DNA of 32,000 nucleotides, from positions 780,001-812,000 of the forward strand of contig NC_018655.1 in assembly GCF_000299365.1 (NCBI RefSeq). The letters are read 5' to 3'. The DNA comes from Candidatus Nitrosopumilus koreensis AR1. Its GTDB lineage: Archaea > Thermoproteota > Nitrososphaeria > Nitrososphaerales > Nitrosopumilaceae. The notes beneath the pieces are model-generated. The model made no database searches and had not been told where the DNA came from. It saw only the letters and a program-made list of their open reading frames with translations. The position numbers were made by a program, and so were the translations under genes. This document shows, one piece after another, positions 8,307-24,930 of this stretch (position 1 is the stretch's first letter; the number at the start of each line of letters is the position of its first letter).

Positions 8307-9044
8307 TCAAGGCATCAATCTTGGATGCATTACTTTTATTCCATCATCCCCCAATTCAATAGGGTGAATCTGCTCACTGTGTGCAATTCCTCTTAGTTTT
8401 GTTACTTGAATTGATCTTTCCATGGTATCATGATGTCTAGAATGACGTAGTTGTATCACACCTGAAGATACAAACCATTCAGGAGGGATGTGATCATCAT
8501 TTACGGATTCAGATAGTAGAATTGATGTGACACCATAACTTTCAAGTGCTTGAACTAATCCTTGCAATCCTTGTCTTTTGTTGAATTCATCAGAGTATTG
8601 CATTTCCAAAATGGTAATAGAATCAATCACAACACGTTTTGCTTCTATTCTTTTAATGCTACTAAGAATTAATTTTGTCAAGTGCTCAAATGGTATTTGT
8701 TCGCCCCTATACAACGAATCATCCTTCCCGATAGAGTGATCAGTTATTTGAAAAGGTCTTGCGTCAATCATCAAAATTTTGTCTTTTGATACCAAGTCCT
8801 CAAAATCCCACCCGTGAGCCTTGGAGTCATTTTTTATTTCATCAATATTTTGGGCAAGACTGATGTACACACCAGGTTCATCAAAATCTTTGGCACCTCC
8901 ATGTAAGAATTGTAATCCAAATGTGGTCTTACCTGAACCCGGAGGGCCAGACACAACAACAGAACGACCTTGTTTTAATCCTCCAGACACGATAGAGTCT
9001 AATCCAGAAATTCCTGTTTTTACCTTGGCATATGTTGAGCTCAT
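8307..9044 (-). CDS. Single-domain KaiC-like/RecA-superfamily ATPase
   Basis: GISGLDSIVSGGLKQGRSVVVSGPPGSGKTTFGLQFL (Walker A) and VVIDSITILE (Walker B-like) match the KaiC domain. The ORF extends to 9056, but the TATA box at 9070-9077 favours the ATG at 9044. Confidence 0.85.
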   Translation of the reverse strand: MSSTYAKVKTGISGLDSIVSGGLKQGRSVVVSGPPGSGKTTFGLQFLHGGAKDFDEPGVYISLAQNIDEIKNDSKAHGWDFEDLVSKDKILMIDARPFQITDHSIGKDDSLYRGEQIPFEHLTKLILSSIKRIEAKRVVIDSITILEMQYSDEFNKRQGLQGLVQALESYGVTSILLSESVNDDHIPPEWFVSSGVIQLRHSRHHDTMERSIQVTKLRGIAHSEQIHPIELGDDGIKVMHPRLMP

Positions 9045-9069
9045 ATACAAAAACAAAGTTAATTTTTGT

Positions 9070-9077
9070 ATATAAAG
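9070..9077 (-). promoter_or_regulatory. TATA box (TTTATATA) for the KaiC-like gene
   Basis: The minus strand reads CTTTATATAC, a near-consensus archaeal TATA. It is centred about 29 nt upstream of the ATG at 9044, consistent with a leaderless or short-leader mRNA. Confidence 0.45.
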
Positions 9078-9119
9078 AAGGAGACTAGTTAGATTCTGAC
9101 AGGTATGATTTTACTAAAA

Positions 9120-9965
9120 TTATAAATGAATATTTTTTGATGTATTCCACATTGACTCAAACAACAACTTCATAGAATATACTAATGCTGGAGAATCAGT
9201 CCACATTGCAAACGGTTCATTAGAGTTGTTTGCATTCTTTGTAAAGAACAACAATTCTGAATTATCTTTTAGTATGAAACACAAATTATCTTTGATATCT
9301 TTGTTTATTGATTTAATATTTTTCCTCTCTAGTTCATCAAAGATGTATAATGTTTTATCACTACAAGAACTAAGTATTCTAAATTTCTGTTTTGATTTTT
9401 CAAATGGTTCTATAAAGTCAGCATGATATAATTTTAAGAGATCTTTTTCACTTCCAAGTAACAACAATTCATCGGTATAGCCATCAGTCATACTGGTAAT
9501 TTTTGAGTAGATTTGATTTGTTCCTTTTAGCATTTGGAATTTCTCTTCCTCATTTTCAGGTTCAGAATCAAACGTTGGAATATTTTTCCAAATTTCAGAT
9601 AATTCACCTTCCATTTTTTCAAGGGATTTTACACGTTCTTTTTCAGAATTTACTAAAATCCATATTGCCTTGTCTAAAGGTAATGCAGTAAATTGTATTG
9701 GGTGTTGGAATGTTGCAGAAACAATGCCCTTGTTTTGTAACGCAGATAATAGATGATATGTTTCGGTTCTAGGTAGTTTTAATGCCTTGCAAACTTCAGG
9801 AGCTGTCTTTGCGCCATATTTACCTAGATAAATGTAAACTTTGGATTGATTTCCAGTAAGGCCATATTTTGATAGTTGTTGTTGAACTTGATCTAAGGAT
9901 GATTTGTACTCTCCTAGAGAGGATCCAGACTCAGCATCAAATATGGATATTGCTTGTTCTTTCAT
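9120..9965 (-). CDS. TrmB-family transcriptional regulator (paralog 1)
   Basis: Winged-helix region LSKYGLTGNQSKVYIYLGKYGAKTAPEVCKALKLPRTETYHLLSALQNKGIV plus a TrmB-like C-terminal domain. The ORF extends to 9986, but the TATAAC box (plus 9995-10000) sits 29 nt upstream of the ATG at 9965 (MKEQAISIF). Confidence 0.85.
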   Translation of the reverse strand: MKEQAISIFDAESGSSLGEYKSSLDQVQQQLSKYGLTGNQSKVYIYLGKYGAKTAPEVCKALKLPRTETYHLLSALQNKGIVSATFQHPIQFTALPLDKAIWILVNSEKERVKSLEKMEGELSEIWKNIPTFDSEPENEEEKFQMLKGTNQIYSKITSMTDGYTDELLLLGSEKDLLKLYHADFIEPFEKSKQKFRILSSCSDKTLYIFDELERKNIKSINKDIKDNLCFILKDNSELLFFTKNANNSNEPFAMWTDSPALVYSMKLLFESMWNTSKNIHL

Positions 9966-10030
9966 TTTACAGGATACTCCGTACATAATGCCATGTTATA
10001 GGATCCGATCGTGAGCTCTTTTTGAGTAAA

Positions 10031-10054
10031 TTGATCGCAATTTTGATCGCAATT
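10031..10054. repeat. Perfect 12-bp tandem direct repeat TTGATCGCAATT x2 in the TrmB-1 upstream region
   Basis: Read directly: 10031-10042 and 10043-10054 are identical. It lies adjacent to the GC-rich GGATCCGATCGTGAGCTC at 10001-10018. Confidence 0.9.
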
Positions 10055-10074
10055 TAGGCACAAATTACTCAATC

Positions 10075-10620
10075 TCATTTTAAAAGACTCTCCACAAACA
10101 ATGGTTTTTCAAGTTTAGCTGGAACTGTGAACTCTGTTTTAAACTTGAATTTTTCTCGAACTTCTTTAGAGTTTTTTAGCAATGCAATTTCAAACTGTCC
10201 GCCATCTTCATAAACAATTGAATTTAGATTGTTCTTTAATCCTTTTGAAACAAGACCATCCAAAGTCTCTTTTGCAGATTGTAGTTTTTCTAATTTTATT
10301 TTTAGAGATTCAATCTCTTTAAAGTATAACTCCAATTCGCCTTTGATACCCATGCCATTATACAGATTTAATGAATTGTATTTTATCCAATTTGAAGAGG
10401 TTTGTTTTTTTGTCTTTTTTGTCTTTTTTTCATCTGATTTGTCTTCTAATTTTTCTTTAATGGATAAGAATTCCTTATCATTTTCTAATTCTTTTTCTTG
10501 AGATCTTAGCTTTTCACCAGCTATCTTTGAAATTTTTTCCAATTCTTTTTTTGTTTCAACAACATTATTTTCTAGATATGTTTTGAATTCATCAATTACA
10601 TTAAATTTAATTAAACTCAT
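10075..10620 (-). CDS. Hypothetical coiled-coil protein, last gene of the leftward pilin operon
   Basis: 181 aa with long heptad-like E/K-rich stretches and a KKTKKTKK linker. Its ATG (10618-10620) directly abuts the stop of the upstream gene (10621-10623). Confidence 0.6.
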   Translation of the reverse strand: MSLIKFNVIDEFKTYLENNVVETKKELEKISKIAGEKLRSQEKELENDKEFLSIKEKLEDKSDEKKTKKTKKQTSSNWIKYNSLNLYNGMGIKGELELYFKEIESLKIKLEKLQSAKETLDGLVSKGLKNNLNSIVYEDGGQFEIALLKNSKEVREKFKFKTEFTVPAKLEKPLFVESLLK

Positions 10621-11127
10621 TTAGATCACCGGTGTTTGATTTAATTCAAGTTGTCCAATATTTTCAATTTTCTTTAATTCATTATTTGCAGAACGCAAAA
10701 AGTTGATGCTGTTAAGTAATTTCAATTTATCTTTTCTTACTAATTCAACAATTTTTGGAGTAATGTAATCTAAAATGTTTATAATAATATCAGTTGAAAA
10801 ACTATCCATTGTTTTTTCTTCTGTTTTACTATTGGAATCAACAACAAGTATGTTAAGATTGGGTAATAATTTTATGTTGGTGTTTTCATCTAAATGTAAA
10901 ATATTAGAGGGTAATTCAATAGATAATCCCAAAAATTTAGTTATAACTTTTAATGAATTAATCAATTCATCAAGCGTGTTTACTCTTTGATTTTCTAATT
11001 CATAAATCTGTAAAGATTCCTGAATTAAAGATTCCATATATTGTAAGCTTGGGTGATCAGAATTACCTCCTGTTTCTGCAGTTGCTTGGTTTGCATTATT
11101 TTCAAGCGTACTATCCATAATGGTCAT
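10621..11127 (-). CDS. Hypothetical protein, pilin-operon member
   Basis: 168-codon ORF on the same strand, contiguous with the downstream gene. No signal peptide or known motif recognised. Confidence 0.58.
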   Translation of the reverse strand: MTIMDSTLENNANQATAETGGNSDHPSLQYMESLIQESLQIYELENQRVNTLDELINSLKVITKFLGLSIELPSNILHLDENTNIKLLPNLNILVVDSNSKTEEKTMDSFSTDIIINILDYITPKIVELVRKDKLKLLNSINFLRSANNELKKIENIGQLELNQTPVI

Positions 11128-11187
11128 GCAAAAAATATTCTTTTTTAGATAATATCCAAGTGTATGTGTGAAAATATTACATCCTGT

Positions 11188-13674
11188 CTAAGTGACTGTG
11201 GTGCCTCCGATGTCAATTGTCTTGAAAAATGTTCTTCCTAATTCATCATATCCGGACAGATAGACGTAAAAATTGTAATTTTCTCCAGGCGTAATAGGAG
11301 TTCCATATTGACCATTTATGGAAGGGTGAGTGGTAGGGGCATAGAACTCTATTGTGAATTTTTTTCCAGGAGGCAAATATATGCTATCATTAGTGTCTGA
11401 CATTTCAAATTCTGTACTAGTTCCATTTACAAATTGAGGCAGTGAAGCGTATGCAATATCTGATGTAACATCATCAAAAACTCCACGAATTCCACTCATT
11501 GAAAAAAATGCGCCTATGGTACCAGTATTGGATACTCTAACCAGATAATTTCCGCCATCCTCATTGATATCATATGAAAAATAACCCGGAAAAGTGTCAT
11601 CAGGTATAGGTATCTGAACAAAGGATGTGTCTGGGTTTCCATTGAGTGAGTCATCATCAATTCTAACATCTACTCCCAAACCACTAACAAAATCTACTGT
11701 AAATAATATGCGTTCATCAGTTAAACTGATCTGATTCATTGCACCAGTAAGATTTCCACTAGAATGAAAATTTGTCACATCATTAAGAGGATCAATAAAA
11801 TCCATTTCAATGTCTGTTTGTGAAAACAATGTTGTTTTACCTCCAGAATTATCGACTCTTTCGATTGTATAGTCTACCAAAAATGCACCATCTCCATATT
11901 TTGTATTGTTTAATGCCAGTACTTCACTAGAAGTTAATCCATATGATTCCCAATGCATTATAGAATCAATACTGCCTTTAAAATTCTCAGTAATTTGACC
12001 ATCTTGGGTATCAGGATTTGCTCCAATCATCCACTTAGTATCTATTTCTAGTTGCGAATTATTTGGATTACTTGTATCTTGTTGAGTTACAACAAAAGAT
12101 CCATCTAAATACAAAGTACATGTTTCAGAATCTACACGAATTCCAACAAAATGATGCCATTCATCAGTAGTTACTCCAGAGGTATTACAATCAAGTATTT
12201 TTCCTTCTGTAGAATCAAATCTAAATGACAATGTACCTGTTGTTCCAGATTTATCAAAAACAACCTCATAAAATTCAGAGCCAGGATTGGATTCTTCAGC
12301 CCGGATTATTACTTGCCGGCCATCATTTCCAGTACCATCTACATAAAACCAACCAGCAGTAGAGTTTGGGCCATCATCAAGATCATTACAAGAGGTATCA
12401 ATTCCTACTGAAATGTAATCATTATTCCCATCAAAAGTAAATCCTCCACTGGAAAATACACCACTAGAATCACTCCATGCAGGCGTGCTGGTACCTGAAC
12501 CAAGAGTGGCACTGATTTCATTATCACATGCAGCCCCAGTTACCCCATTAGAAAGAAAAGATTGTTTCTCAAAATGAAATATCATACCACTAGATAAAAT
12601 TGAATTATCTATAGTTGAATCAAGATGGGAATTAAGATAAGCTAAAGATGAAGTCCAAGTTCCAGAAGGTATTGTAACTGTACTTGTTTGGTTATTTGTA
12701 ATGTATGCCATGTTATTTTGATCAAGATCAACGGTAAACCCTGTGGCATCTGCGGTACCAGAGCTTAATTGATATTCGCCATTAGGGGTGTTTGTGGATT
12801 CTTGATGAATTGTAAGAATGTCAGGAGTGTTACTAGGAACTGTAAATCCAAGTGATTCCAAAGAAGTTCCAGCTTCTAATGCCAACAACACGTCTTTAAT
12901 TGTTATAGTTACAGATGAATCATTTCCAGGATATCCATTTACAATAGAACCAGTTATAGTTACAGATTCTGCGGCTGTACCTGAAATGACACAGGACCAT
13001 TTGAAGATTACAGATTCACCTTTTTTCAGAGAAGGGTACGATGCAGGAGTTGGCGAAGAATCACAAATTGCGGTTGCGGAACCTGATGGGGGAGACATCT
13101 CAGGGACAATGTTAAGTAAAGTAACATCATTTGGAAGGTCATTTGTAACAGTCATAAATAATGTTGTAGAAAATCCATTAGCAACGGTTTCAGGAGCTGC
13201 ATGTAAGTTAATAGATAAATTTTGATCAGGAACTGAATTGAAAAAATATGTTTCAGTATTTCCCCGATCAGTAACAAGGGATATTTTATACGCTTGAGTA
13301 TCAACTACAGAAAGCGGAAGGGTTTGTCCAATTCCGCTGACAGAATTTGAAGGAGATATGCTTTGATCAATATCAAATTTTGAAGGAATCCATGTTGAAT
13401 CAGTGGTATTTTCAATCCATAGTTTTGTTAATTTTATTGGAAGTTGGCCTTTGTTTTGAACTGTCAAATCAAATTTGTTGTTTGTAATGGTAGCATCAGA
13501 AATTTCAAAAGATTCAGAATTTCTTGCACCATCAACACTTTCTTTGATTATTACGGCTTGTGAAAAATCATCAATCACATTCATACTATATGACACATAT
13601 GCCACAGTGCTAGAAGCAGCAATTATAAAAAATACTGCACCCACCAGCGTACTTAATGCTCTACGATTTTTCAT
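11188..13674 (-). CDS. Giant (828 aa) type IV pilin-like protein with class III signal peptide, beta-sandwich modules and a LamG/concanavalin-A-like lectin domain
   Basis: The N-terminus MKNRRA|LSTLVGAVFFIIAASSTVAYV is basic, then Ala, then a hydrophobic helix. Residues about 395-595 (nt about 11890-12492) carry the Laminin_G_3 pattern: FTFDGNNDYISV ... TAGWFYVDG ... LSFRFDS ... WHHFVGIRVDSETCTLYLDGSFV. The ATG overlaps the upstream pilin gene by 4 nt. Confidence 0.8.
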   Translation of the reverse strand: MKNRRALSTLVGAVFFIIAASSTVAYVSYSMNVIDDFSQAVIIKESVDGARNSESFEISDATITNNKFDLTVQNKGQLPIKLTKLWIENTTDSTWIPSKFDIDQSISPSNSVSGIGQTLPLSVVDTQAYKISLVTDRGNTETYFFNSVPDQNLSINLHAAPETVANGFSTTLFMTVTNDLPNDVTLLNIVPEMSPPSGSATAICDSSPTPASYPSLKKGESVIFKWSCVISGTAAESVTITGSIVNGYPGNDSSVTITIKDVLLALEAGTSLESLGFTVPSNTPDILTIHQESTNTPNGEYQLSSGTADATGFTVDLDQNNMAYITNNQTSTVTIPSGTWTSSLAYLNSHLDSTIDNSILSSGMIFHFEKQSFLSNGVTGAACDNEISATLGSGTSTPAWSDSSGVFSSGGFTFDGNNDYISVGIDTSCNDLDDGPNSTAGWFYVDGTGNDGRQVIIRAEESNPGSEFYEVVFDKSGTTGTLSFRFDSTEGKILDCNTSGVTTDEWHHFVGIRVDSETCTLYLDGSFVVTQQDTSNPNNSQLEIDTKWMIGANPDTQDGQITENFKGSIDSIMHWESYGLTSSEVLALNNTKYGDGAFLVDYTIERVDNSGGKTTLFSQTDIEMDFIDPLNDVTNFHSSGNLTGAMNQISLTDERILFTVDFVSGLGVDVRIDDDSLNGNPDTSFVQIPIPDDTFPGYFSYDINEDGGNYLVRVSNTGTIGAFFSMSGIRGVFDDVTSDIAYASLPQFVNGTSTEFEMSDTNDSIYLPPGKKFTIEFYAPTTHPSINGQYGTPITPGENYNFYVYLSGYDELGRTFFKTIDIGGTTVT

Positions 13675-14123
13675 GGACTCACCTGGGTTCTGAATTGATT
13701 ATCTCTAGCACTTTTGATCAAAATATCAAATTCAACATCATCAATCCAAGCATAAGTCATGTTTATTGAATAAGATTCAGAAGGGCTCATTCCTCCATCA
13801 TCAATTAACACTGAACTAATTTTTTCAAATGTTGTTGAGTTAATAAATTGAATATTTGTTACATTTAATCCAACATTTCCAGTATTAGTCATGGTTACAT
13901 TGACATATTTAGAAGGATTTGTTCCAAACCATATTTTTTCAAATATAATGTGCTCATTTAGTTTATTGATATTTTTTGAAAAAGTATTTTCAAGATTTTT
14001 TTGATGAGACAATAAATTAGAATTGGACCATCCGACCAAACCCGCGCCAAGAATTGCAATAGATGATAATAGAATGGCACTAGTGACAATAGAAGCTAAG
14101 GCTCTCCTACGAACAAATTTCAT
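13671..14123 (-). CDS. Type IV pilin-like protein (150 aa, class III signal peptide)
   Basis: The N-terminus MKFVRRRA|LASIVTSAILLSSIAILGAGLV is followed by a small beta-rich domain (VNVTMTNTGNVGLNVTNIQFI). A TATA-like CAATATAC (plus 14147-14154) ends about 24 nt upstream of the ATG. Confidence 0.75.
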   Translation of the reverse strand: MKFVRRRALASIVTSAILLSSIAILGAGLVGWSNSNLLSHQKNLENTFSKNINKLNEHIIFEKIWFGTNPSKYVNVTMTNTGNVGLNVTNIQFINSTTFEKISSVLIDDGGMSPSESYSINMTYAWIDDVEFDILIKSARDNQFRTQVSP

Positions 14124-14184
14124 TAAGTAATTTCATGAAAAATTAGGTATATTGCTCAGTATGTAATAAAATCTAACTTACATT

Positions 14185-14823
14185 TTATGATGATGCAGAC
14201 TCGTTAATTTTCTTATTTAAAACGGAATTGATGGTATCTATTTTTTGTTTTAATTCATCAGAAGGGTTTTCTGAATGTTGATTGCTAAGATCAATTTGCA
14301 GTTTTGTTAATTCCTCTGTAGACATTTGATCAAATTCAGAATCTGCCGATTTTATTTCATCTGAATATGTTACTTCTTTTTCATTTGTTGATTCCTCTGT
14401 TTGTTCTTTTACATCTTCAGAAATTGACTCTAATTCTGAAGAGTGTTCTGTTTGTTCAGAAAGATCCATTGTTTTGCTAATCTCATATGGTGGACATGGG
14501 ATTTTCATGCTCTTAGTTAGCATGAACAACACAGGGTATAATTCCTGATAAGACATGCGTAAAATTTGAGGGATGTTTTGTTCATCTTTTTGATATAATG
14601 ATTCTAATTCTGAAGAATTTCCGTTAACGTCAATTTTTCCTTCCAAGCTTAGACGAATCCCTTTAGGTGCAGAGCTAAAGGTATAGCCATATTGTAATTG
14701 ACAAGAGTTTTCAGCACTGGAAACCTCGTTTAATGACACATCAATGTCATATTTTTTAAAATCTGTTTTCTCTTTGACATTATTATTTACATTGAATGAT
14801 TCAATGTCCAAATTGAACTGCAT
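14185..14823 (-). CDS. Hypothetical protein with acidic C-terminal half
   Basis: 212-codon ORF with no signal peptide. The C-terminal half is rich in E/S/D (SEQTEHSSELESISEDVKEQTEESTNEKE). It is divergent from the AAA/vWA operon across only 67 nt. Confidence 0.6.
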   Translation of the reverse strand: MQFNLDIESFNVNNNVKEKTDFKKYDIDVSLNEVSSAENSCQLQYGYTFSSAPKGIRLSLEGKIDVNGNSSELESLYQKDEQNIPQILRMSYQELYPVLFMLTKSMKIPCPPYEISKTMDLSEQTEHSSELESISEDVKEQTEESTNEKEVTYSDEIKSADSEFDQMSTEELTKLQIDLSNQHSENPSDELKQKIDTINSVLNKKINESASS

Positions 14824-14890
14824 TTGAAAGTAGAATCAAAAATTGTGTATTAACAAAGTGTCTGTCATTTCAAGTTACATCATTTCGAAT

Positions 14891-15928
14891 ATGAGCAATA
14901 ATAATGATTTAAAAATAATGCAAATAGAGGATTTTGCCCAAAAGAACACTGTAAAGAAGAAAAATTTTAATTTAAATTTTACAATTTCAAAAGCTCCCAA
15001 AAAAGCCAAGAAATTAGATTTACATCAAGATATTTCAAATTATCTGGACAAAAATCAGTATTCATTTAGTGAAGATATGCAAGAGATGATTCCAAAAGAC
15101 ACTCCTCCATATTTGGATAATGGGGAAAAGTATGTAGAAAGAATTGCAAGAGCTTTAAAGTTTTTTAAACAATGTTCTTTGATTGGCCCCAGCGGAACTG
15201 GAAAAACACACATTGTTTATTTGGTTGCTGAATTAGCAGGTCTGCCATTATGGGAAATTAATTGTGGATTACAAACATCTGTTTTTGATCTTTTTGGAAG
15301 ATATGTAGGATTGGGAAAAGAGAACTGGATTGATGGATTGATTGTAAACTGGTGTAGAGATGGAGGAATATTGTATCTTGATGAGGCAAACATGATGAAA
15401 CAAGATGTTGCAACACGATTAAACCCTATTCTTGATCAGAGAGGACATCTTGTGTTAACAGAAAAAGATAATGAACTTATCCATAGACACGAACATGCAT
15501 ATCTGATAATCAGCATGAATCCTTTTTCATCAGAATTTGCAGGAACAAAGCCACTCAATGCTGCAATGAGAAGAAGGATGAGCGTTTGGTTAAATTTTGA
15601 TTACATGAGTGTGGGAGATAAAATTGATGAAAAAGAAATTGATCTTGTATGTCACAGAGCAAAAGTAAACAGAGACGATGCAGAAAAAATTGTCAAGATA
15701 GGTGCAAAACTAAGGCAAGAATATCAACAAGGTGATCTTCCATATGGTCCATCAGTTGGAGATTTGGCAAATTGGGCAAAAATTGTTGCAGATGGAACAA
15801 CGGTGGAAATTGCAGCAGAAGAGACAATCATAGCATTAACTGCAGATGATTTTGAGGTTCAAGAAGAAGTTCGTGCAATTGTAAAACGAGTTTGCGGAGG
15901 AGATAAGTTTGAAAGAAAATTTGTATGA
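14891..15928 (+). CDS. AAA_5 (MoxR/CbbQ/NorQ-type) ATPase
   Basis: Walker A LIGPSGTGKTHIVYLVAE, Walker B GGILYLDEANMM, and LIISMNPFSSEFAGTKPLNAAMRRRM (sensor/Arg-finger region) are typical of dynein-related AAA_5 ATPases. The ORF opens at TTG 14843, but the ATG at 14891 (MSNNND) is preferred. Confidence 0.85.
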   Translation: MSNNNDLKIMQIEDFAQKNTVKKKNFNLNFTISKAPKKAKKLDLHQDISNYLDKNQYSFSEDMQEMIPKDTPPYLDNGEKYVERIARALKFFKQCSLIGPSGTGKTHIVYLVAELAGLPLWEINCGLQTSVFDLFGRYVGLGKENWIDGLIVNWCRDGGILYLDEANMMKQDVATRLNPILDQRGHLVLTEKDNELIHRHEHAYLIISMNPFSSEFAGTKPLNAAMRRRMSVWLNFDYMSVGDKIDEKEIDLVCHRAKVNRDDAEKIVKIGAKLRQEYQQGDLPYGPSVGDLANWAKIVADGTTVEIAAEETIIALTADDFEVQEEVRAIVKRVCGGDKFERKFV

Positions 15929-17471
15929 TCTATCTGCAAACATCATCTATGAAGTAGCAGACAAAGAAAAAACAAGCATTGAAGTAACAATGCCTGAAAA
16001 ATTATCTTTTTTAGAACTAAAGTACGGAAAACCCACACAAATATCCCTTCCAAAACCAAAAAAAAGTGATGAAAAATGTCTCTATCAAGGCATTCTGTTT
16101 GATAGTATAGATGACTCGTATTCTACAGTGTGGTCTTTGTTTTTAGCATCATTGTATCACTCTGGAGGCCATGCTGCAGTTTCAGATTATTCAGTATATC
16201 AAAAATGGTATCAGAGAAAATCCCCAATCTTAGCATCTCAAGCAATTAAATTTGTGGAAGACATCAGAGTTCAGGAATATCTAAAAACCAGATATTCAAA
16301 TCCTTTAAAAAATATTGAAATGATTAAATTTTCTTGTGAATTGTTGTACAACAAATTTTTGAAAAACATCCTAGAGTCAAATGAAAAAAATAGAACACAG
16401 CATGCATTTAGAAATAAAATAGAACACTTCAGAAATGAAGTAAAAGAATCTATAACAAATAATGACACTCCTGAAAACAGGATTAAACTTGCAGATGAAA
16501 TTTACAAAAACAGATATGCTTTAGGAATGTGGGAATATCCATTTTGCGACAACATCAAACCAACAAACTTTACAAAATATTTGAAATATTTGAAATTAAA
16601 TCCTACTGGAGAATTCAGACACTATGCTAACGAATTAGGCAATATGTGGATAGACGAAATTAAAAAAGAAGAAAAAATGATGGAAAAATACAAAAAATAT
16701 TCTGAAGGATTACGTTTTGACAAAATCAAACTAGCACCAGAAAATCTTGGAAAATTTTTTCAGTTGAGAGTAGATAGTACAAATTTTATTAAAAAAATTA
16801 GAAGTCAAGTATCGAATGTAACAAACTCCATGGAAGATCCAAATACTGAAGATTATGGTTACATTGAAATGCAAAAAGCAGTTCAGGCAGTTGCAAGTGA
16901 AAGTCAAGGAATTTCTTATTTTGAGCAAGATCAAGAACTTCGTTATGAGGAAAGCTGGGCAATAGTTATGGATACTAGTGCAAGTATGAAAATTCAGTTT
17001 CAGGATTTACAGAAATTTTTGATGTGTATTGCAGAAGCTGCAGACAAAATAAACTACAAGGGAGGAAAATGGTCCATACATGGTTTTAGCAATGATTTTG
17101 TGCTGATTAAAGATTTCAAAGAAAAGTATGATGACAGAATCAAGGCCAGGATAGGAGGAATGAACAGTTCAGGATTATCATTTGTTCCAGATGCCATGAA
17201 ATTGGCAACAAGAATGCTAGAAGACGACATCAATGAACGCAGATACTTGTTCCTAATTACCGATGGATACATGATGGGGTATCATGAAATTGACGAAGAG
17301 TTTCAATCTGCTATTAATCTGGCCTCCAAGGCAGGCGTAAATGTAATAGCAATAGGCGTACCTGATGGAATGTCAAAATATTTCACAGTTAGTTTCCCTC
17401 ATACTGAGATTAGAAAGACAGTTGCAAACTTTGTTCGCGCCTATACATCTGTGGCACAACAATACATGTAA
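15909..17471 (+). CDS. von Willebrand factor A (vWA) domain protein, NorD/CbbO-like architecture
   Basis: The C-terminal vWA domain has the MIDAS motif WAIVMDTSASMK (DxSxS) and ...LFLITDGYMMG.... There is a long helical N-terminal region and no signal peptide. The TTG start at 15909 is preceded by GGAGG (15896-15900) and overlaps the AAA gene by 20 nt. Confidence 0.8.
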   Translation: MKENLYDLSANIIYEVADKEKTSIEVTMPEKLSFLELKYGKPTQISLPKPKKSDEKCLYQGILFDSIDDSYSTVWSLFLASLYHSGGHAAVSDYSVYQKWYQRKSPILASQAIKFVEDIRVQEYLKTRYSNPLKNIEMIKFSCELLYNKFLKNILESNEKNRTQHAFRNKIEHFRNEVKESITNNDTPENRIKLADEIYKNRYALGMWEYPFCDNIKPTNFTKYLKYLKLNPTGEFRHYANELGNMWIDEIKKEEKMMEKYKKYSEGLRFDKIKLAPENLGKFFQLRVDSTNFIKKIRSQVSNVTNSMEDPNTEDYGYIEMQKAVQAVASESQGISYFEQDQELRYEESWAIVMDTSASMKIQFQDLQKFLMCIAEAADKINYKGGKWSIHGFSNDFVLIKDFKEKYDDRIKARIGGMNSSGLSFVPDAMKLATRMLEDDINERRYLFLITDGYMMGYHEIDEEFQSAINLASKAGVNVIAIGVPDGMSKYFTVSFPHTEIRKTVANFVRAYTSVAQQYM

Positions 17472-17492
17472 TTTCGAATTATTACATACTCT

Positions 17493-17500
17493 TTTAGATA
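17493..17500 (+). promoter_or_regulatory. TATA-like box (TTTAGATA) for the major pilin gene
   Basis: One mismatch from TTTATATA. It is centred about 29 nt upstream of the ATG at 17526, consistent with a leaderless transcript. Confidence 0.35.
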
Positions 17501-17525
17501 TTCTACAAAATAACCATATTTTTTA

Positions 17526-18155
17526 ATGAAAATGACCCCTCTACGAAATAATCGCAGAGCAATCAGTACAGTACTTACAACCATCATCATCTTGGTGGCT
17601 TCTGTTGTACTTGGTTCAGGTGTAGTTGTTTACGGCACATCACTTTTCCAAGGCGGTACACAACAAGAAGCAATTTCAGTCCAAGGTGTCCAGTTGTGGG
17701 TTAATGCTACTGATTCAAACGGCGTTGCATGGGGTGCTGCTGCTGTAAGAAACAGTGGTGACAAAATCTTGTCTACAGACAAGATAGAAGTCAGAGGTAC
17801 TAACGTTCCATTCTCAGCCTGGTATGTAGACACAGATCCAGACAGAGTAACGGTAGATAACTTCCAGGCACAATTCATTTCAACCGGAACTGTTTCAGGT
17901 CAAATGCAATCTACAGGTTCAACATGTGCATCTGCAGATCTTGAAATTGATCTGGATGATGCAGGTGCATTACCAGCATTATGTATGACCAAACAATCAG
18001 GTCCTGTTGGTTTGAATCCAGGTGACAGAATGATCATCTACTTCAAAGTTCCAGATGGAACTCTATCATCACTTGATGCAGGAGCAACATCTAGCTTGAA
18101 TATCTTCGCCGGAAAAACTGGTGCACCACAAAGTGTAACCATCGCAAATACTTAG
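17526..18155 (+). CDS. Type IV pilin (209 aa), candidate major pilin, class III signal peptide
   Basis: MKMTPLRNNRRA|ISTVLTTIIILVASVVLGSGVVVYGTSLF resembles Aap/Ups-type archaeal adhesive pilin N-termini and lacks the GIGTLI-type archaellin motif. The globular part is rich in G/T/S/A. The gene appears to have its own promoter and terminator. Confidence 0.8.
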   Translation: MKMTPLRNNRRAISTVLTTIIILVASVVLGSGVVVYGTSLFQGGTQQEAISVQGVQLWVNATDSNGVAWGAAAVRNSGDKILSTDKIEVRGTNVPFSAWYVDTDPDRVTVDNFQAQFISTGTVSGQMQSTGSTCASADLEIDLDDAGALPALCMTKQSGPVGLNPGDRMIIYFKVPDGTLSSLDAGATSSLNIFAGKTGAPQSVTIANT

Positions 18156-18198
18156 GATTCGGTGTTTTTTTAATGAATCCATTTTTTCCTTTTTCTTT
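18155..18198 (+). terminator. Hairpin plus oligo-T terminator/attenuator after the major pilin gene
   Basis: GGATTC (18155-18160) and GAATCC (18175-18180) form an inverted repeat flanking a T7 run (18165-18171). T6 (18182-18187) and T5 (18190-18194) follow. The next gene has its own GGTGA Shine-Dalgarno at 18200-18204. Confidence 0.45.
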
Positions 18199-18209
18199 AG
18201 GTGAAGTAA

Positions 18210-19739
18210 ATGAAGGATAAAACAAAGTCTGTAGAAACTTTTCTTAAAAGTGAGTTTTTTGATCCAAATCAAAAACAAGCTTCATCAGAATTAAAGATTA
18301 TAAAAAATTATGAACTGAATGCACCATACAGTTATGCAAATATTTTGTATAATGAAAAAAATTCCAGTTATGAATACCAAATTGATGAGATTAAATTAAA
18401 TCATGAAGAGCAAGAAATTTTTAACAAATTATACCAATTATTAGAGGAAAGCATAGACTCTGTAAAAAATGCAAAAGGAGATAATTTTGAAAGTTTTCTA
18501 AATACCATAATTGATGAAAATAAAAAATTATTTGAAAGATATCCTGTAGCAAGTTTGGAGAAAGTAAAATATTATCTTAGACGAGACATCTCAGGATTTG
18601 GAATCATTGATGGATTGATGTGGGATCCTAATATTGAGGATATCAGTTGTGCTGGAATCAATACTCCAATTTACATTTGGCACAGACAATACGACAGCAT
18701 CCCAACAAATATTCAATTTGAACCAAGTAATCTAAACAATTTTGTGTCTAGAATTGTATTTCGTGCAGGAAAACATGTTAGTTCTGCACATCCAATCACA
18801 GATTTAGCATTAGAAGGCAATCACAGAATCTCAGTTCTGTATCAAAAAGAGGTAACACCAAAAGGTACCAGTTTCACTATTAGAAAATTCAAAGAAGATC
18901 CATACACAATTGTTGATTTGATAGACTTTGAGACAATGGATACGTCAATGGCGGCATATCTATGGTTGTTAATGGAGGCAAAGATGTCCATAATGGTGAT
19001 TGGTTCAACAGGTAGTGGAAAAACTACCATTCTTAATGCAATAACTGGGTTGGTCAATCCAGATTACAAGATATTTTCAGTTGAAGATGTATCTGAAATT
19101 AACATAAAACATGAGAACTGGTTTAGTCTGATTTCAAGACCGGGTTTTGGAACACAAGGAGAGGGCGAAATTGGACTGTATGATTTGATAAAATCAGGAG
19201 TAAGACACAGACCAGATTACATTATAGTAGGAGAGATTAGAGGCTCTGAAGCTTATGTGATGTTTCAAGCAATGGCAACAGGTCATGGAGGATTGTGTAC
19301 AATGCATGCAGATAGTTTGATTTCTGCAACAAAAAGACTTCAACAAAAACCAATGGAGATTCCACCATCATACATGACTTTGATGAACTGTGCAATTGTG
19401 ATTAAACGAGTAAAAGACAATGAGACAAATCAAAGTACAAGAAAGATAGTTTCGATTGAAGAGATTAAAGACAGTAATTCATTTAATTCTGTTTTCAAAT
19501 GGAATGCAAAAAACAAAACATTTGATTCAGAGATTGAAAAAAGCGAGATGGTAAAAAGAATTGCAGAGTCACAAGGTCAAGCAGTTAATGAGTTAATTGA
19601 TGAATACAAAAAAAGAGTTTCAATTCTAAAATATCTCAAAGATCATAATATTCGAGACTATAAAGAGACAAGTGATTTTATTGGAAGATATTATAGAAAC
19701 CCAAATGAAATTCTAGAAAAAATTCATTATGAGGTGTAA
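18210..19739 (+). CDS. Type IV pilus/archaellum assembly ATPase (ArlI/FlaI, PilB/TadA superfamily, T2SSE domain)
   Basis: Walker A VIGSTGSGKTTILNAI, Asp/Walker B box RHRPDYIIVGEIRGSEA and His box ATGHGGLCTMHA. 509 aa with an N-terminal domain typical of FlaI-like ATPases. Confidence 0.92.
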   Translation: MKDKTKSVETFLKSEFFDPNQKQASSELKIIKNYELNAPYSYANILYNEKNSSYEYQIDEIKLNHEEQEIFNKLYQLLEESIDSVKNAKGDNFESFLNTIIDENKKLFERYPVASLEKVKYYLRRDISGFGIIDGLMWDPNIEDISCAGINTPIYIWHRQYDSIPTNIQFEPSNLNNFVSRIVFRAGKHVSSAHPITDLALEGNHRISVLYQKEVTPKGTSFTIRKFKEDPYTIVDLIDFETMDTSMAAYLWLLMEAKMSIMVIGSTGSGKTTILNAITGLVNPDYKIFSVEDVSEINIKHENWFSLISRPGFGTQGEGEIGLYDLIKSGVRHRPDYIIVGEIRGSEAYVMFQAMATGHGGLCTMHADSLISATKRLQQKPMEIPPSYMTLMNCAIVIKRVKDNETNQSTRKIVSIEEIKDSNSFNSVFKWNAKNKTFDSEIEKSEMVKRIAESQGQAVNELIDEYKKRVSILKYLKDHNIRDYKETSDFIGRYYRNPNEILEKIHYEV

Positions 19740-19742
19740 AAA

Positions 19743-21191
19743 CTGCTTTCACTGAAAGACAGTCAAAAGAAAATCGACAAAAAGGAAAAAACAAAACTAG
19801 AAAGAGAAATTCCTTATTTTATCACATTTGTTACATTATTAGCAACAAGTGGATTTGGACCATACACAATATTTGAAAAGATAAAAAATTTTGATATTTT
19901 GCCACATACACAGACTCAAGCAAAAAGAATACTGAAAAGAATAGAGATTTTGGGCATGGATCCAATATCGGCCATAACTCAAGCAAAAGACAAGACATCA
20001 TCAAAGACAATGTCAGATTTTCTTGGAGGTTATGTTTCAGCAATAGAGGGAGGAGGAGATGTAGTAAATTATCTAAAAAGCAAGATGAATGGAGCATTTG
20101 ACTCCTATGCTGAAACAGAAAAACAAAAGATCAGCAAAGTAAAGGCACTTGTAGAGTCATACATGACAATACAAATAGTAATTTTAGCAGTATACATTAT
20201 ATTTTCAGCAGTTGGTTCAGGTACAGACCCAACAGCATTAGCTCAGAATTCAGGTGACAACTCACAACTATTGTTGATTGTAATTCCGCCAATAATATCC
20301 GCAGCATTTATCTTTCTTGCAAGTAAAACAAATTCTTCATTCTTACCAGAAATGCCAGTAAAACAAATTGCAATGTACACAATTCCAATATGCAGTATTG
20401 GTTTTACAATTACATTATTGGGAATCATCAAAGAGTACAATGCATTTATCATGATGTTTTCTCTAGTGGCTGCAGCAGTATTTCCTGCAATGAAATTTAA
20501 AAGAACATATCAACGATCAATTGATGCTGAAAATGCTACTCCAAGAATAATGAGAGATATTGCTGAGTCAAGAAAAGCAGGAACTAGTCCAGAAAAATGT
20601 GTAATCCGGGCATGTAAAAGTAAAGATTACAAATTATTTACATCAACATCCAATACAATAGGAAGTAAATTGGAATGGGGCATACCATTTGATGATATTT
20701 TTAATTCATTGAAAAAAGAGATTAAAGATTTTCAAGTCTTGATTAATTTTAAGATCTTGTTTGAAATCATTTCAGGAGGAGGAGGAAACATCCATACACT
20801 GATATCTCTTGCAGATATTTCAGAAAAAATCCACAGCATTGAGAAAACAAAACGCAGTTTACTTAAACCATACATAATGATTGGATTCATTTTGATGGGC
20901 ATGACAGGATTAACAACATTACTGGTAATTGATTCACTTGCAAGCATAGGAATTCAGTCTGAAACAGATTCTGAAAGGATTGCATTAATGGAGAAAAATT
21001 CACAAGAAAGTTTTGAAATGTATTCAATTGTCATTCTGATTCAAGGATGGTTAGCAGGCATATTCTTAGGAAAAGTAGTCACAGGCACATATTCAGGAGG
21101 ATTCCAATACTCAATAATTTTGGTGTTGATTGCGTTTGGAAGCATCATGCTTATTCAGAGTTCAATTGTAAGCATTGGCGCCCTGTTCTAG
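19743..21191 (+). CDS. Type IV pilus platform membrane protein (ArlJ/FlaJ, TadC family, two T2SSF-like domains); start codon unresolved
   Basis: Polytopic membrane protein with duplicated motifs (RILKRIEILGMDPISAI...GGGDVVNYL and RDIAESRKAGTSPEKCV...GGGGNIHTLI). The listed ORF starts at TTG 19899. However, 53 upstream in-frame sense codons (19740-19898) encode ...REIPYFITFVTLLATSGFGPYTIFEKI..., which belongs to the domain. No ATG, GTG or TTG occurs in that stretch, so the start given here (CTG 19743) is provisional. Confidence 0.82.
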   Translation: MLSLKDSQKKIDKKEKTKLEREIPYFITFVTLLATSGFGPYTIFEKIKNFDILPHTQTQAKRILKRIEILGMDPISAITQAKDKTSSKTMSDFLGGYVSAIEGGGDVVNYLKSKMNGAFDSYAETEKQKISKVKALVESYMTIQIVILAVYIIFSAVGSGTDPTALAQNSGDNSQLLLIVIPPIISAAFIFLASKTNSSFLPEMPVKQIAMYTIPICSIGFTITLLGIIKEYNAFIMMFSLVAAAVFPAMKFKRTYQRSIDAENATPRIMRDIAESRKAGTSPEKCVIRACKSKDYKLFTSTSNTIGSKLEWGIPFDDIFNSLKKEIKDFQVLINFKILFEIISGGGGNIHTLISLADISEKIHSIEKTKRSLLKPYIMIGFILMGMTGLTTLLVIDSLASIGIQSETDSERIALMEKNSQESFEMYSIVILIQGWLAGIFLGKVVTGTYSGGFQYSIILVLIAFGSIMLIQSSIVSIGALF

Positions 21192-21250: not shown

Positions 21251-23863
21251 TTGAAGACTGTCTTAGTGATACTTTTAGTTCTAGTTGTGGTTGGAGGAGG
21301 AGTACCAATAGATGCCCAATCCAATTTTGGAGTACAGAATCCATTTGATAAACAACCTGACTTGGAATTTGGATATCAATTACATCCACAAAAATTCTTG
21401 GAAAATACAGAAGGCATAATCAACATACATGCATTAAACAATGAAAACATTTTACCAGTTGAGATAAACGGATTAAAAGTATCTAGTTCAGACAACACAA
21501 TAGTAGCAATTACAGGAATCAGTAATGCAGAAAACTATTCGACAGAAATCAAAATATTGGCAAAAGAACCAGGTTTTGCAAACATATCTCTTGCAGCACC
21601 AGGATTCAAATCACAAGAAATTCCAATAGTTATCTACAACAACAACAATCATCCAACCCAAATATTACTAAAAACAACTCCAAATGATTTTCCAGTAGAT
21701 GGCCCAAAATTTGGATATATCGGAATTGAGCTTGCAACTACAGGCAATTTACCCGTAATTGCAACAGAAGACACCATTGTAAAAATTTCCACTCCAAATA
21801 CAAATGTGATAAAATTACAAGAGTCAGAGATTACAATACCAAAAGGAGAATATTATACACTGACAAAATTCAACATAAAAGAATCAGGAGATGCAATTAT
21901 ATTTGCAGAAACAGAAGGGATGAAAAAAGTTAGCCAATTCATCCATGTCAGGGAAGCAAAAACACCGTTACAATTACAACTATATGTTTTTCCAAAAAAT
22001 TTCAATAGCTTTTCATCACAAACAGGCTATGCAATTGTTCAATTACAAGATGCTGAAGGAATACCTGTAAAAGCAGACAAGAATATTAATTTGAAAATAG
22101 GAGTAGAAAACCCAGATTCAGGAATTAATACCAGTCATGATTTTGAAGAATTTTTGTTTGCGTCAAATGAATTAGAGATAAAAGAAGGAAGTTATTCCAC
22201 ATTTAGTAGTTTTTCAATAAGACCAAATGTTGCAGATTTTACAGATGAATTTGTGCAATCATACAATTTTTACATTATAGCAGATGATCATATCGCAAAA
22301 GGGGATTCTATTACAGTTACACATGATGAAATAGGAGCCATAGAAGGAAAGGGTCCAGCAATAACACAAACACTCCCATTTTTAACAACAGGTGAAAAAG
22401 AGCTTGTAGGAGTAACATATTTTGAAACAGAAGTTGAGGTTTCAAGACAGTTAGGAACAAGTACATTAGGCAAGACAGATAGAGAAACAGTTACAGTTTC
22501 AGTACCCGTAGTAGCAAGTGAAGATCTTTTTGTCAATGTTGCATCATCAAACTTGAAAACGGTGGATGCAGAAAATGCGTTTATTCCAAAGGGGAAAAAT
22601 ACTGGTTTGATTTTTGGAAATACTGGAACAATGATTCCAGATGAAGGAGAATCTCTTGAATTCTATATTACTGATAACAAGAAATCTTCAACAGTTGCAG
22701 GAGAACCAAACGGTCCATTGGAAGATGATCTTTCGTTAATTGTAGAGCCACTTATTCCAAAGATTCTTGCATATTCACAATTTCCAATAATTGGGTATCT
22801 GTTAGAAAGTCCTGAAGAGGATGAGGAAGTTACAACTGCAGATGATGAGGAAGAAGAGGAAGACGGACGAATAGGAGTTACTCATTTTATCAAAGATTCA
22901 GTCATGACATTTAGTGCTAATGAGAATTTTGAGATTCCACCAGAAGTGATAACACAAAATCAAGAGTATGCTGTAATTTTTGGTCAATCAAATAAGATAG
23001 GTACTAGCAGCATGACAGTTCAAGCCACAGGTATGGAAACAGGATTAAGTTTAGAGAGTCACACTACAGATCCAACCAACATAGAGTTATCCGTATCTAA
23101 GAACATCCTTCCCATGACCAAAAACTTGGCATCAATCCAGCTTTTAGACTCTGTTGGGAATCCTGCATATGCTAAAAACCAAATCACATTAGAGATCGTA
23201 TCAAATAATCAATATTCTTTGAAATTACCTGAGAATATAGTAATTGAAAAAGGGGAATATTTCAAATCATTTGAGATAGAATCATTTTCAGAAGGCACTA
23301 CAGAAATCACTATGTTAGCAGAAGACTTGCCAATGCATAATTTTGAATTAACTGTTAATGGATTTCATCCCGAAATATCACTAGTTGCGCCTAACTCAAT
23401 TGATCAAGGTACACAAATAACTGCAGAGTTGTTATTAGATTATCCAACATCAACATTATCTGTAGAAAATTTTGATGTAAATTGGAATGTTATTGGCGGA
23501 AAAATAATTGAACAAGAAACCACAACAGATAGTGACGGAAAAGCTAGAATCACAATAGATGAAATCAAATCAGAGAGTCTAGAGATTTATGCATCAGTTG
23601 AAGGATTAGGATTTACAAATCTAGAAATAAATAAAACAATCAAAGTTATTCCTGCTCCCATCACAGATGCAGTAACTGAAGAAACAAATAATGAAATATT
23701 TACTGAAAATAATTTCATATTGTTTGCAATTCCAGGTGCAGCAGGAGCTGCATTCTTTTATCTAAGAAAAACAAATCGCTTAGAAGAGATCACAGAAAGA
23801 TTTAACATATCTGAGAAAATTGAAGAGATAAAAGAAAGAGTTTCAAGCATTAGAGAAAGGTAA
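21251..23863 (+). CDS. Large secreted, C-terminally membrane-anchored surface protein with repeated Ig-like (Big_2-like) modules and an acidic linker
   Basis: TTG start. Sec-type signal MKTVLVILLVLVVVGGGVPIDAQS. Recurring module ends (EPGFANISLAAPGF, GDAIIFAETEGM, GTSSMTVQATGM, GTTEITMLAEDL, ESLEIYASVEGLG). Acidic tract EEDEEVTTADDEEEEEDG at about nt 22810-22870. C-terminal helix FILFAIPGAAGAAFFYL followed by RK. Confidence 0.7.
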   Translation: MKTVLVILLVLVVVGGGVPIDAQSNFGVQNPFDKQPDLEFGYQLHPQKFLENTEGIINIHALNNENILPVEINGLKVSSSDNTIVAITGISNAENYSTEIKILAKEPGFANISLAAPGFKSQEIPIVIYNNNNHPTQILLKTTPNDFPVDGPKFGYIGIELATTGNLPVIATEDTIVKISTPNTNVIKLQESEITIPKGEYYTLTKFNIKESGDAIIFAETEGMKKVSQFIHVREAKTPLQLQLYVFPKNFNSFSSQTGYAIVQLQDAEGIPVKADKNINLKIGVENPDSGINTSHDFEEFLFASNELEIKEGSYSTFSSFSIRPNVADFTDEFVQSYNFYIIADDHIAKGDSITVTHDEIGAIEGKGPAITQTLPFLTTGEKELVGVTYFETEVEVSRQLGTSTLGKTDRETVTVSVPVVASEDLFVNVASSNLKTVDAENAFIPKGKNTGLIFGNTGTMIPDEGESLEFYITDNKKSSTVAGEPNGPLEDDLSLIVEPLIPKILAYSQFPIIGYLLESPEEDEEVTTADDEEEEEDGRIGVTHFIKDSVMTFSANENFEIPPEVITQNQEYAVIFGQSNKIGTSSMTVQATGMETGLSLESHTTDPTNIELSVSKNILPMTKNLASIQLLDSVGNPAYAKNQITLEIVSNNQYSLKLPENIVIEKGEYFKSFEIESFSEGTTEITMLAEDLPMHNFELTVNGFHPEISLVAPNSIDQGTQITAELLLDYPTSTLSVENFDVNWNVIGGKIIEQETTTDSDGKARITIDEIKSESLEIYASVEGLGFTNLEINKTIKVIPAPITDAVTEETNNEIFTENNFILFAIPGAAGAAFFYLRKTNRLEEITERFNISEKIEEIKERVSSIRER

Positions 23864-24234: not shown

Positions 24235-24930
24235 ATGGAAACAATTCCAGAGATTTTTTTGATAAGAATCGGTCTGGCATTAGGAATGCTTGCCATAGGA
24301 GGATTTTTTGATATTTGGAAAAGAGAAGTGCATGATTATCTTTGGATTGTTTTCGGAGTAGCAGGAGCAATATTACTAATTTTTGAACCAAATCAAACAG
24401 ATATAATTTACTCAACACTATTTGCGTTGATCATTGCGCCAATTTCTATACTAATTTGGAGAATGGGATTATTTGGCGGAGCAGATGCTTTTGCATTAAT
24501 TGCACTAGCAGTAATAGCGCCACAAATTACAATTAGTGGAAATATTGTTACACCATTTACGACGTTATCAAATGCTGCAGTATTATTCATAGTTCCATTA
24601 TTAGTAAATGCATTGAGAAATACAATTTCAAAAATTAGAGGAGAGAATATTTTTGAAGGATTTGATGAAACATTACCCAGAAAAATTCTAGCATCATTCT
24701 TAGGATATAGAGCAAAAAATCCAAAATATTGTTTTTCAATTGAGAAAAATGAAGGATCTGTTAAAAAAATAGCATTTTCATTTCACCATGCAGACAATGA
24801 AGAATTTTCAGAAAAACCAAACACATGGGTTACCCCTGGAATCCCATATCTGTTATTAATTATTGGAGGTTTCTTGATTCAATTAGGATATGGAGACATA
24901 ATTCTAATCGGTATGGGTATGGGGCCATAA
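24235..24930 (+). CDS. Prepilin/prearchaellin signal peptidase (peptidase A24, FlaK/PibD type)
   Basis: Polytopic membrane protein with both catalytic-Asp contexts (GGFFDIWKREVHD and LFGGADAFALIALAV). GGTGAT Shine-Dalgarno at 24223-24228, with a TTTTATAG box about 45 nt upstream. Confidence 0.85.
   Translation: METIPEIFLIRIGLALGMLAIGGFFDIWKREVHDYLWIVFGVAGAILLIFEPNQTDIIYSTLFALIIAPISILIWRMGLFGGADAFALIALAVIAPQITISGNIVTPFTTLSNAAVLFIVPLLVNALRNTISKIRGENIFEGFDETLPRKILASFLGYRAKNPKYCFSIEKNEGSVKKIAFSFHHADNEEFSEKPNTWVTPGIPYLLLIIGGFLIQLGYGDIILIGMGMGP

Follow-up and report, generated by a model that had tools for sequence, protein, structure and literature searches.

A NorQ/NorD-like ATPase and von Willebrand factor A protein pair in the type IV pilus locus of Nitrosopumilales, and its predicted SecB-fold neighbour

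A pair of overlapping genes, encoding a MoxR-class AAA+ ATPase and a protein containing a vWA (von Willebrand factor type A) domain, stands in the type IV pilus (T4P) locus of the ammonia-oxidising archaeon Candidatus Nitrosopumilus koreensis AR1. We analysed the pair within a 32,000-nucleotide (nt) stretch of contig NC_018655 (780001-812000), referred to below as the window; a window position is the NC_018655 position minus 780000, as the coordinates tabulated in the supplement of Makarova et al. 2016 show. Both genes have intact catalytic or metal-binding motifs, the architecture predicted for the vWA protein is NorD-like, and across the Nitrosopumilales the pair is linked to pilus genes and to a divergently transcribed gene whose 212-amino-acid (aa) product has a predicted SecB fold. 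We propose that the pair is a machine of the NorQD/CbbQO type that is dedicated to the Nitrosopumilales type IV pilus system and acts on a pilus-related client. The reading draws on analogy with the characterised machines, and we judge it about as likely to be right as wrong.

A preliminary description of this DNA had implied that the association with pilus genes was new, but it was published by Makarova, Koonin and Albers in 2016 with these very genes: the arCOG00441/arCOG02900 pair was reported to be "strongly linked" to thaumarchaeal T4P loci, and the supplementary table lists 794918..795928 of NC_018655 as arCOG00441 'MoxR-like ATPase' and 795909..797471 as arCOG02900 'vWFA domain containing protein' (PMC4858521). 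The linkage is therefore already known since 2016 for this exact locus, and the function of the pair is only predicted; Makarova et al. list it among predicted T4P regulators (PMC4858521), and no later paper testing that function was found in the literature. The statement in the preliminary description that no role of a MoxR/vWA pair in archaeal pilus biogenesis is established thus still holds. Since the linkage has been in the literature since 2016, the remaining value lies in the mechanism, and what is added here is the NorD-like (rather than ArnB-like) architecture of the vWA protein, a conserved candidate partner with a predicted SecB fold, and promoter elements that the units of the locus appear to share.

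Results

The ATPase is of the CbbQ/NorQ class

Judged by its sequence, the first protein of the pair is a CbbQ/NorQ-class MoxR AAA+ ATPase. The Pfam domains AAA_5 (72.9 bits, cut-off 22) and CbbQ_C (49.6 bits, cut-off 20.6) both scored above their cut-offs, and the Walker A motif GPSGTGKT (nt 15185-15208) and Walker B motif ILYLDEAN (nt 15368-15391) are present as first described. Across 58 orthologues little or no variation is seen in the catalytic motifs GPSGTGKT and LYLDEAN and the arginine-rich MRRRM, and residues ~70-240 as a whole are nearly invariant. The gene had been taken to begin at 14843, where the longest open reading frame (ORF; 14843..15928, + strand) opens with a TTG; the reading frame stands but that start does not, as ATG 14918 is the start in GenBank and RefSeq and in most of the listed orthologues (336 aa). 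An alternative upstream ATG is found at 14891. Among the 120 matches listed in the homologue search there were only orthologues at least 70% identical to the ATPase, and the sampling of gene context from the ATPase side was confined to these.

The best matches of the ATPase among PDB sequences were the AAA modules of midasin (E 2e-56 summed), followed by CbbQ (5c3c, 3.6e-24), NorQ (9qh4, 1.7e-22) and CobS (4e-9), and its orthologues carry database labels such as 'nitric oxide reductase NorQ protein' and 'CbbQ/NirQ/NorQ/GpvN family'. The best NCBIfam match was the GvpN equivalog TIGR02640, at 42.6 bits against a cut-off of 266.8, which leaves the protein outside that equivalog, although arCOG00441 is named GvpN-like. 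GvpN, a gas vesicle protein, aids the growth of a polymer whose subunits are small and hydrophobic, a task close in concept to the polymerisation of pilins; we know of no vWA partner for it.

The labels and the CobS match would also suit a quite different explanation, in which the pair serves an unrelated client, for instance by inserting metal into a copper or respiratory enzyme, as NorQD does, or as a CobS/CobT-like chelatase, and its position in a pilus locus is accidental. The vWA protein shows weak similarity to CobT/CobT_C (CobT_C in 5 of 15 family members, best E 3.6e-4), and a cobalamin adenosyltransferase gene lies ~10 kb from the pair. Against this, NorQ and CbbQ score far above CobS, the GvpN score is far below its cut-off, and the window contains no nor, cbb, gvp or cobN genes; nor and cbb, whose absence had been stated in the preliminary description, were looked for among window ORFs of at least 110 aa, and neither norCB nor cbbLS, the client genes of the two best-known machines, was among the window ORFs. 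PADLOC run on the window gave no defence-system match of any meaning. A CobS/CobT cobaltochelatase was rejected because CobT_C is weak, CobS falls far below NorQ and CbbQ, and cobN is absent from the window. Because the pilus synteny described below is conserved across genera, at ~30% adaptor identity, and recurs in a second lineage, an unrelated client of any kind seems very unlikely.

The vWA protein resembles NorD and midasin rather than ArnB

[quoted passage not shown] The site is complete: D355, S357, S359 and D452 are invariant, and T451 nearly invariant, in 59 vWA orthologues. With motifs conserved in 58 and 59 orthologues, respectively, the ATPase and vWA genes are both clearly real. 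Neither protein has a transmembrane-like or signal-like segment or a hydrophobic N-terminus, in agreement with the cytoplasmic location proposed earlier.

An AlphaFold2 (AF2) model of the vWA protein (predicted template modelling score, pTM, 0.78) consists of an N-terminal domain (residues 1-300) made up of a small beta unit and a helical bundle, a segment modelled with low confidence (301-345), a compactly folded VWA domain (346-492) and a low-confidence C-terminal helix. Residues 301-345 and 493-520 are conserved and have a low predicted local distance difference test score (pLDDT). The mean major-residue frequency of segment 301-345 is 0.62 in the 59 orthologues, matching the VWA core, compared with 0.46 for the N-terminal domain; conserved yet of low pLDDT, this segment thus has the pattern expected of an element whose folding occurs on a partner. 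The top Foldseek match of the model was NorD (9qhd_G, E 1e-7), followed by the MIDAS domains of midasin/Rea1 (8ql1, 6qtb), and the matched NorD chains come from the 2026 cryo-electron microscopy structures of NorQD. A profile of the family likewise matched NorD at 4.8e-5, its best non-collagen match in a PDB profile search. The architecture of the adaptor, as modelled, is therefore NorD/midasin-like and not ArnB-like, and the kinship with NorQ/NorD and CbbQ/CbbO put forward in the preliminary description agrees with the best PDB sequence and fold matches of both proteins. The N-terminal domain is confined to a small family, matching just 75 cluster representatives out of 1.84 billion; these are proteins of ~520 aa or ~570-587 aa, and a C-terminal VWA domain was present in seven of the eight sampled, including all five of the ~570-587 aa proteins sampled.

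NorQ/NorD, which inserts FeB into cytochrome c nitric oxide reductase (cNOR), shares with the present pair the AAA_5 plus CbbQ_C composition of the ATPase, an adaptor in which an N-domain and a flexible stretch precede a C-terminal VWA carrying the MIDAS pattern DxSxS..T..D, and adjacent, overlapping genes. It differs in its gene context, which here is a pilus locus without nor genes, and in the adaptor N-domain, which is unrelated and here restricted to a small family of archaea; from residue 301 to its end this adaptor has ~220 aa, compared with ~300 aa for the VWA and finger of NorD, and the present ATPase has an extra N-terminal extension of ~65 aa. [quoted passage not shown]

The Rubisco activase CbbQ/CbbO has an ATPase of the same subfamily, and the literature describes a C-terminal MIDAS-VWA in CbbO that binds an acidic client residue; a Rubisco/cbb context is absent here and the N-terminal domains are unrelated. 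In eukaryotic ribosome assembly midasin/Rea1, whose AAA domains and MIDAS domain gave the best ATPase sequence match and second-best adaptor fold match, respectively, works by seizing a conserved acidic residue of the factor with its MIDAS, whereupon the ring pulls that factor away. Midasin is one giant polypeptide with six fused AAA modules, unlike the two small separate proteins found here, and CbbO is much larger than this adaptor.

The comparison with ArnA/ArnB bears on a second explanation, the one proposed by Makarova et al. 2016, in which the pair is a regulatory module that controls pilus expression or activity, either by sequestering and releasing a TrmB or KaiC-like regulator or by gating the assembly ATPase, and so resembles in outcome the ArnA/ArnB repression of the Sulfolobus archaellum. 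In its favour, ArnB is an archaeal vWA protein with a MIDAS, its target is a type IV filament system and, according to Makarova et al., it falls in the same arCOG02900. ArnB/vWA2, however, has an N-terminal vWA domain followed by a beta-sandwich and a C-terminal four-helix bundle, the reverse of the domain order found here, and works with the FHA protein ArnA (PMC6509490), whereas no FHA gene is present in the window; in addition, ArnA/ArnB are reported never to occur inside T4P loci (PMC4858521). The ArnB paralogue structure 5A8J was absent from the 50 listed Foldseek matches and from the PDB profile matches, and there was no similarity beyond the generic VWA fold. Because 5A8J is unmatched, the domain order differs and an FHA gene is absent, the arCOG shared with ArnB reflects only the generic VWA domain, and membership of the ArnB type was rejected for the same reasons.

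The pair is conserved next to pilus genes

The linkage was examined from the vWA side in a scan that took one genome per species and gave 42 loci, 40 of them from Nitrosopumilales (Nitrosarchaeum, Nitrosotenuis, Nitrosotalea and others) and two from Bathyarchaeia; fractions quoted for genome loci count only those with enough flanking sequence. The ATPase gene is directly upstream of the vWA gene in 32/34 species-representative loci, a pilin gene directly downstream in 24/26, and a pilus ATPase gene at most 4 kb away in 19/20. tblastn with ten window proteins showed that the order of the ten genes is kept even where vWA identity is only 30-35%. The exceptions (L007 and L011) are second, orphan copies of the vWA gene, and both Nitrosotenuis genomes that carry them also hold a complete locus. 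These orphan paralogues (L007, 9992-11551; L011, 10001-11530) have no adjoining ATPase, SecB-fold or pilus genes, and the L007 copy lies among genes for a TrmB regulator and for secreted or coiled-coil proteins that are uncharacterised.

A metagenome scan based on the pilus ATPase gave 80 loci. In 35 of them the sequence upstream of the first pilin was informative, and 33 of the 35 have a vWA gene at that position. The two loci without it were L078 and L048 (region 1-1450). In L078 (1-8000) the entire left arm is swapped for unrelated genes, including those for an FTR1 permease and a hydantoinase.

In the Bathyarchaeia (L041 and L042, ~6000-19500) a trio of SecB-fold, ATPase and 573-aa vWA genes is followed by a TrmB gene, and facing it is a convergent T4P operon; in L042 the ATPase gene (8044-9069) adjoins the vWA gene (9095-10816) and the operon has T2SSE, T2SSF and pilin-like genes. 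The pilus association therefore reaches beyond the Nitrosopumilales. Since the census from the vWA side, that from the pilus-ATPase side and the Bathyarchaeia agree, the adjacency is conserved and not incidental; the preliminary description had allowed for homologous pairs that are never pilus-linked, and they proved to be almost always beside pilus genes.

Within the pair the two genes overlap by 20 nt (15909-15928) and a GGAGG precedes the second start (15896-15900), both as first reported, and the genes overlap or are at most 20 nt apart in 52 of 58 loci. Identity across the family is ~72% for the motor and ~32% for the adaptor, which in this respect resembles the pilins, a difference that fits an adaptor tracking fast-evolving clients.

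The divergent neighbour has a predicted SecB fold

The preliminary description had the ATPase gene diverging from a pilin/adhesin operon across 67 nt. The immediate neighbour is instead a separate gene for a cytoplasmic 212-aa protein, whose sequence matches NKOR_04810 from Candidatus Nitrosopumilus koreensis AR1 at 100% identity, and since the annotated ATPase start is ATG 14918 the spacer is 94 nt; 67 nt would apply only with ATG 14891. The protein is listed as arCOG05517, 'Uncharacterized protein', in the table of Makarova et al. 2016 (PMC4858521).

The AF2 model of the protein opens with a predicted SecB-fold N-domain (residues 1-118), continues into an acidic tail that is disordered and has a helical hairpin at its C-terminal end. 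In the N-domain (pLDDT ~85) four antiparallel strands form a sheet, after which come one short and one long helix and then the disordered acidic stretch. The top Foldseek matches were SecB of Escherichia coli (1qyn) and Haemophilus influenzae (1fx3), the mycobacterial SecB-like Rv1957 (5mtw) and 1ozb, with E 2.4e-4, probability 1.00 and a TM-score of 0.59 normalised to SecB. The predicted sheet and two helices are the features held in common with SecB and the SecB-like chaperones of toxin-antitoxin-chaperone systems. SecB also has an acidic C-terminal tail, as the 212-aa protein has, but the tail here is far longer, the host is archaeal and sequence similarity is lacking.

The N-domain is conserved in all loci, with tails of 37-150 residues that are uniformly acidic and in many members end in a loosely conserved ..IIQE.NVS... 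The gene is divergent from the ATPase gene in 30/32 genome loci and present in 20/20 metagenome loci. A Bathyarchaeia homologue (hhalign probability 97.4%, E 1e-11) is also divergent from the ATPase gene, and as it holds the same position the SecB-fold, ATPase and adaptor genes form a trio conserved in two deep lineages. We regard the 212-aa protein as a candidate partner for the pair. A search of the literature turned up nothing on SecB-like proteins in the pilus loci of archaea.

Promoter-like motifs divide the locus

The preliminary description had placed the pair as the first two genes of the pilus assembly operon. The downstream order that it gave (pilin, ATPase, platform and 870-aa surface protein) agrees with our findings, but a conserved promoter-like motif intervenes between the vWA stop and the pilin ATG, and the same motif precedes the other pilin gene (Table 1). 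This intervening motif is kept across the family. Because of its position the pair looks like a two-gene unit of its own, and probably is one. No oligo-T tract follows the vWA gene, so transcription may still read through into the pilin gene. The exact pattern ACATACTAGNNNAGATA occurs in 17/42 genome loci, invariably just before pilin genes, and precedes both where the pilin is duplicated. Its general form, TACATACT(AG)-N3-5-AGATA(A/T), is seen ~25-43 nt before every pilin ATG, including those of duplicates (window, L016, L026, L040 and others). The motif is probably a pilin-specific promoter or operator.

An alignment of 38 divergent spacers (MAFFT) gave the consensus TTAA-N4-5-CTGTnTGTA-N10-TACAnATnACA-N2-ATTAA. 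Such a block would be a putative bidirectional promoter with a central operator, and its dyad and the pilin motif have a TACATA core in common. We infer from these sequence elements four units: the SecB-fold gene; the ATPase and vWA genes; the major pilin, perhaps running on into the assembly genes; and the minor pilin with the LamG pilin. The four probably share a regulon. A scan for sigma-70 promoters and intrinsic terminators was uninformative, the host being archaeal.

Table 1. Features of the pilus locus, in window coordinates
Feature	Position	Strand	Remarks
Left-arm unit, downstream of SecB-fold gene	11188..14123	-	150-aa pilin-like gene 13671-14123 and 828-aa LamG pilin/adhesin 11188-13674
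Second copy of pilin-promoter-like motif, 1 mismatch	14148..14165	-	-42 to -25 from ATG of 150-aa pilin gene
212-aa cytoplasmic protein NKOR_04810, arCOG05517 'uncharacterized'	14185..14823	-	divergent from ATPase gene
Conserved block of divergent spacer	14848..14890	.	TATA-like TATTAA 14848-14853; dyad TGTCTGTC..TTACATCA 14859-14882
MoxR-class (CbbQ/GvpN/NorQ group) AAA+ ATPase, 336 aa	14918..15928	+	AFS80849.1 / WP_014963235.1 'ATPase' (exact-sequence look-up)
GGAGG Shine-Dalgarno-like element	15896..15900	+	8 nt before vWA TTG start, inside ATPase gene end; read in sequence
vWA adaptor protein, 520 aa	15909..17471	+	AFS80850.1 / WP_014963236.1 'von Willebrand factor type A' (exact-sequence look-up)
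Pilin-promoter-like motif TACATACT-N5-AGATA	17483..17500	+	-43 to -26 from ATG of 209-aa pilin, between vWA stop and pilin start
Type IV pilin, 209 aa, UpsA-like, class III signal peptide	17526..18155	+	NCBIfam UpsA 2.6e-8; hydrophobic N-terminal segment
FlaI/T2SSE-type pilus assembly ATPase	18210..19739	+	Pfam T2SSE 2.2e-36; NCBIfam FlaI 4.9e-106
T2SSF/TadC platform protein, start uncertain	19743..21191	+	starts: CTG 19743, ATC 19773 (RefSeq, 472 aa), TTG 19899 (GenBank, 430 aa)
Acidic surface protein, 870 aa, signal peptide and C-terminal anchor	21251..23863	+	

The locus is flanked on the left by genes for a TrmB regulator and a KaiC-like ATPase, and on the right by those for an A24 prepilin peptidase, another TrmB protein and a receiver/histidine-kinase pair, and with these flanking genes the functional locus would extend over ~8.3-27.4 kb. 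The flanking genes are at window 8307-9986 and 24235-27439.

Discussion

A proposed remodelling machine for the pilus system

The gene identities, the motifs and the linkage described above are compatible with the following scheme, for which we infer, by analogy with NorQD, CbbQO and midasin, the ring, the docking of the adaptor, the client's identity and the effect's direction. The ATPase would form a ring on which one copy of the vWA protein docks, probably through segment 301-345 and the C-terminal helix. The family-specific N-terminal domain and the Mg-MIDAS would grip an acidic residue of the client, which ATP hydrolysis would then pull or twist. The client would be a cytoplasmically exposed component of the pilus system. 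We prefer the acidic-tailed SecB-fold protein as candidate, or else a precursor, prepilin or adhesin, that this protein holds; the trio would then provide a hold-and-release chaperone step ahead of membrane insertion and assembly. In its most specific form, with the SecB-fold protein joined by the NorQ-like ATPase and its NorD-like adaptor in a dedicated cytoplasmic hold-and-release system for prepilins or for the large pilin-anchored adhesin, the scheme is speculative, and we think it unlikely as it stands.

A remodeller is suggested by the chaperone fold predicted for the conserved neighbour and by the presence in the locus of separate regulators, namely the two TrmB proteins, the KaiC-like protein and the two-component pair. 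To our knowledge, all characterised CbbQ/NorQ-type pairs remodel protein complexes rather than regulate transcription, which also argues for a remodeller and against the regulatory explanation.

Several observations weigh against a pilus-dedicated remodeller. In Nitrosotenuis the orphan vWA paralogue stands without an ATPase (L007, L011). The two metagenome loci of the same clade that have no adjoining pair (L078, L048) imply that the pair is not indispensable in cis. The SecB assignment is a moderate-confidence model with a Foldseek E of ~2e-4, and the sequence gave no Pfam match and no match in a PDB profile search at E up to 10, so that the protein is not placed in the SecB family by sequence. 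In the Bathyarchaeia a TrmB gene directly follows the vWA gene, which suits a regulatory role, as does the classification of the pair as a predicted regulator by Makarova et al. (PMC4858521). The regulatory explanation also draws on the TrmB gene near an orphan vWA paralogue, on the two TrmB genes and the KaiC-like gene that flank the locus, and on the TACATA core common to the dyad upstream of the pair and the pilin motif, which would place them in the same regulon. Set against the reversed domain order, the missing ArnB fold match and FHA partner and the reported absence of ArnA/ArnB from T4P loci, these points leave it, in our judgement, the main rival, though less likely than the remodeller.

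Should the specific hold-and-release form of the scheme prove right, the pair would be part of the first MoxR/VWA machine with a filament-assembly client rather than a metalloenzyme, and its neighbour would have the first SecB-type chaperone function in archaea. MoxR/VWA pairs are widespread, with clients known for a handful (Rubisco, cNOR, chelatases and respiratory complexes), and the tight tie of this pair to pili provides a small, defined set of candidate clients. We know of no cytoplasmic assembly chaperones for archaeal type IV pili. Ammonia-oxidising archaea are globally important, and their surface attachment is poorly understood.

Other observations on the window

Directly after the pilus ATPase stop codon the platform (T2SSF) frame is already open (19740-19900), and it encodes the conserved N-terminal segment ..REIPYFITFVTLLATSGFGPY... 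ATG, GTG and TTG are absent from this 5' segment here, with CTG 19743 in their place, and orthologues start there with ATG, TTG or GTG. Stop-codon read-through from the pilus ATPase gene into the platform gene was considered, as the two are in the same frame here, and rejected because the frame relation is not kept in other loci.

Besides the 212-aa, 150-aa and 828-aa products, the minus-strand left arm encodes two small cytoplasmic proteins. A 168-aa left-arm protein looked by eye like the 172-aa neighbour in Bathyarchaeia, but BLASTP between the two gave no similarity and the kinship was dropped. A tRNA-Phe (GAA) at 3400-3474 (- strand) was the sole Rfam or ARAGORN match in the window.

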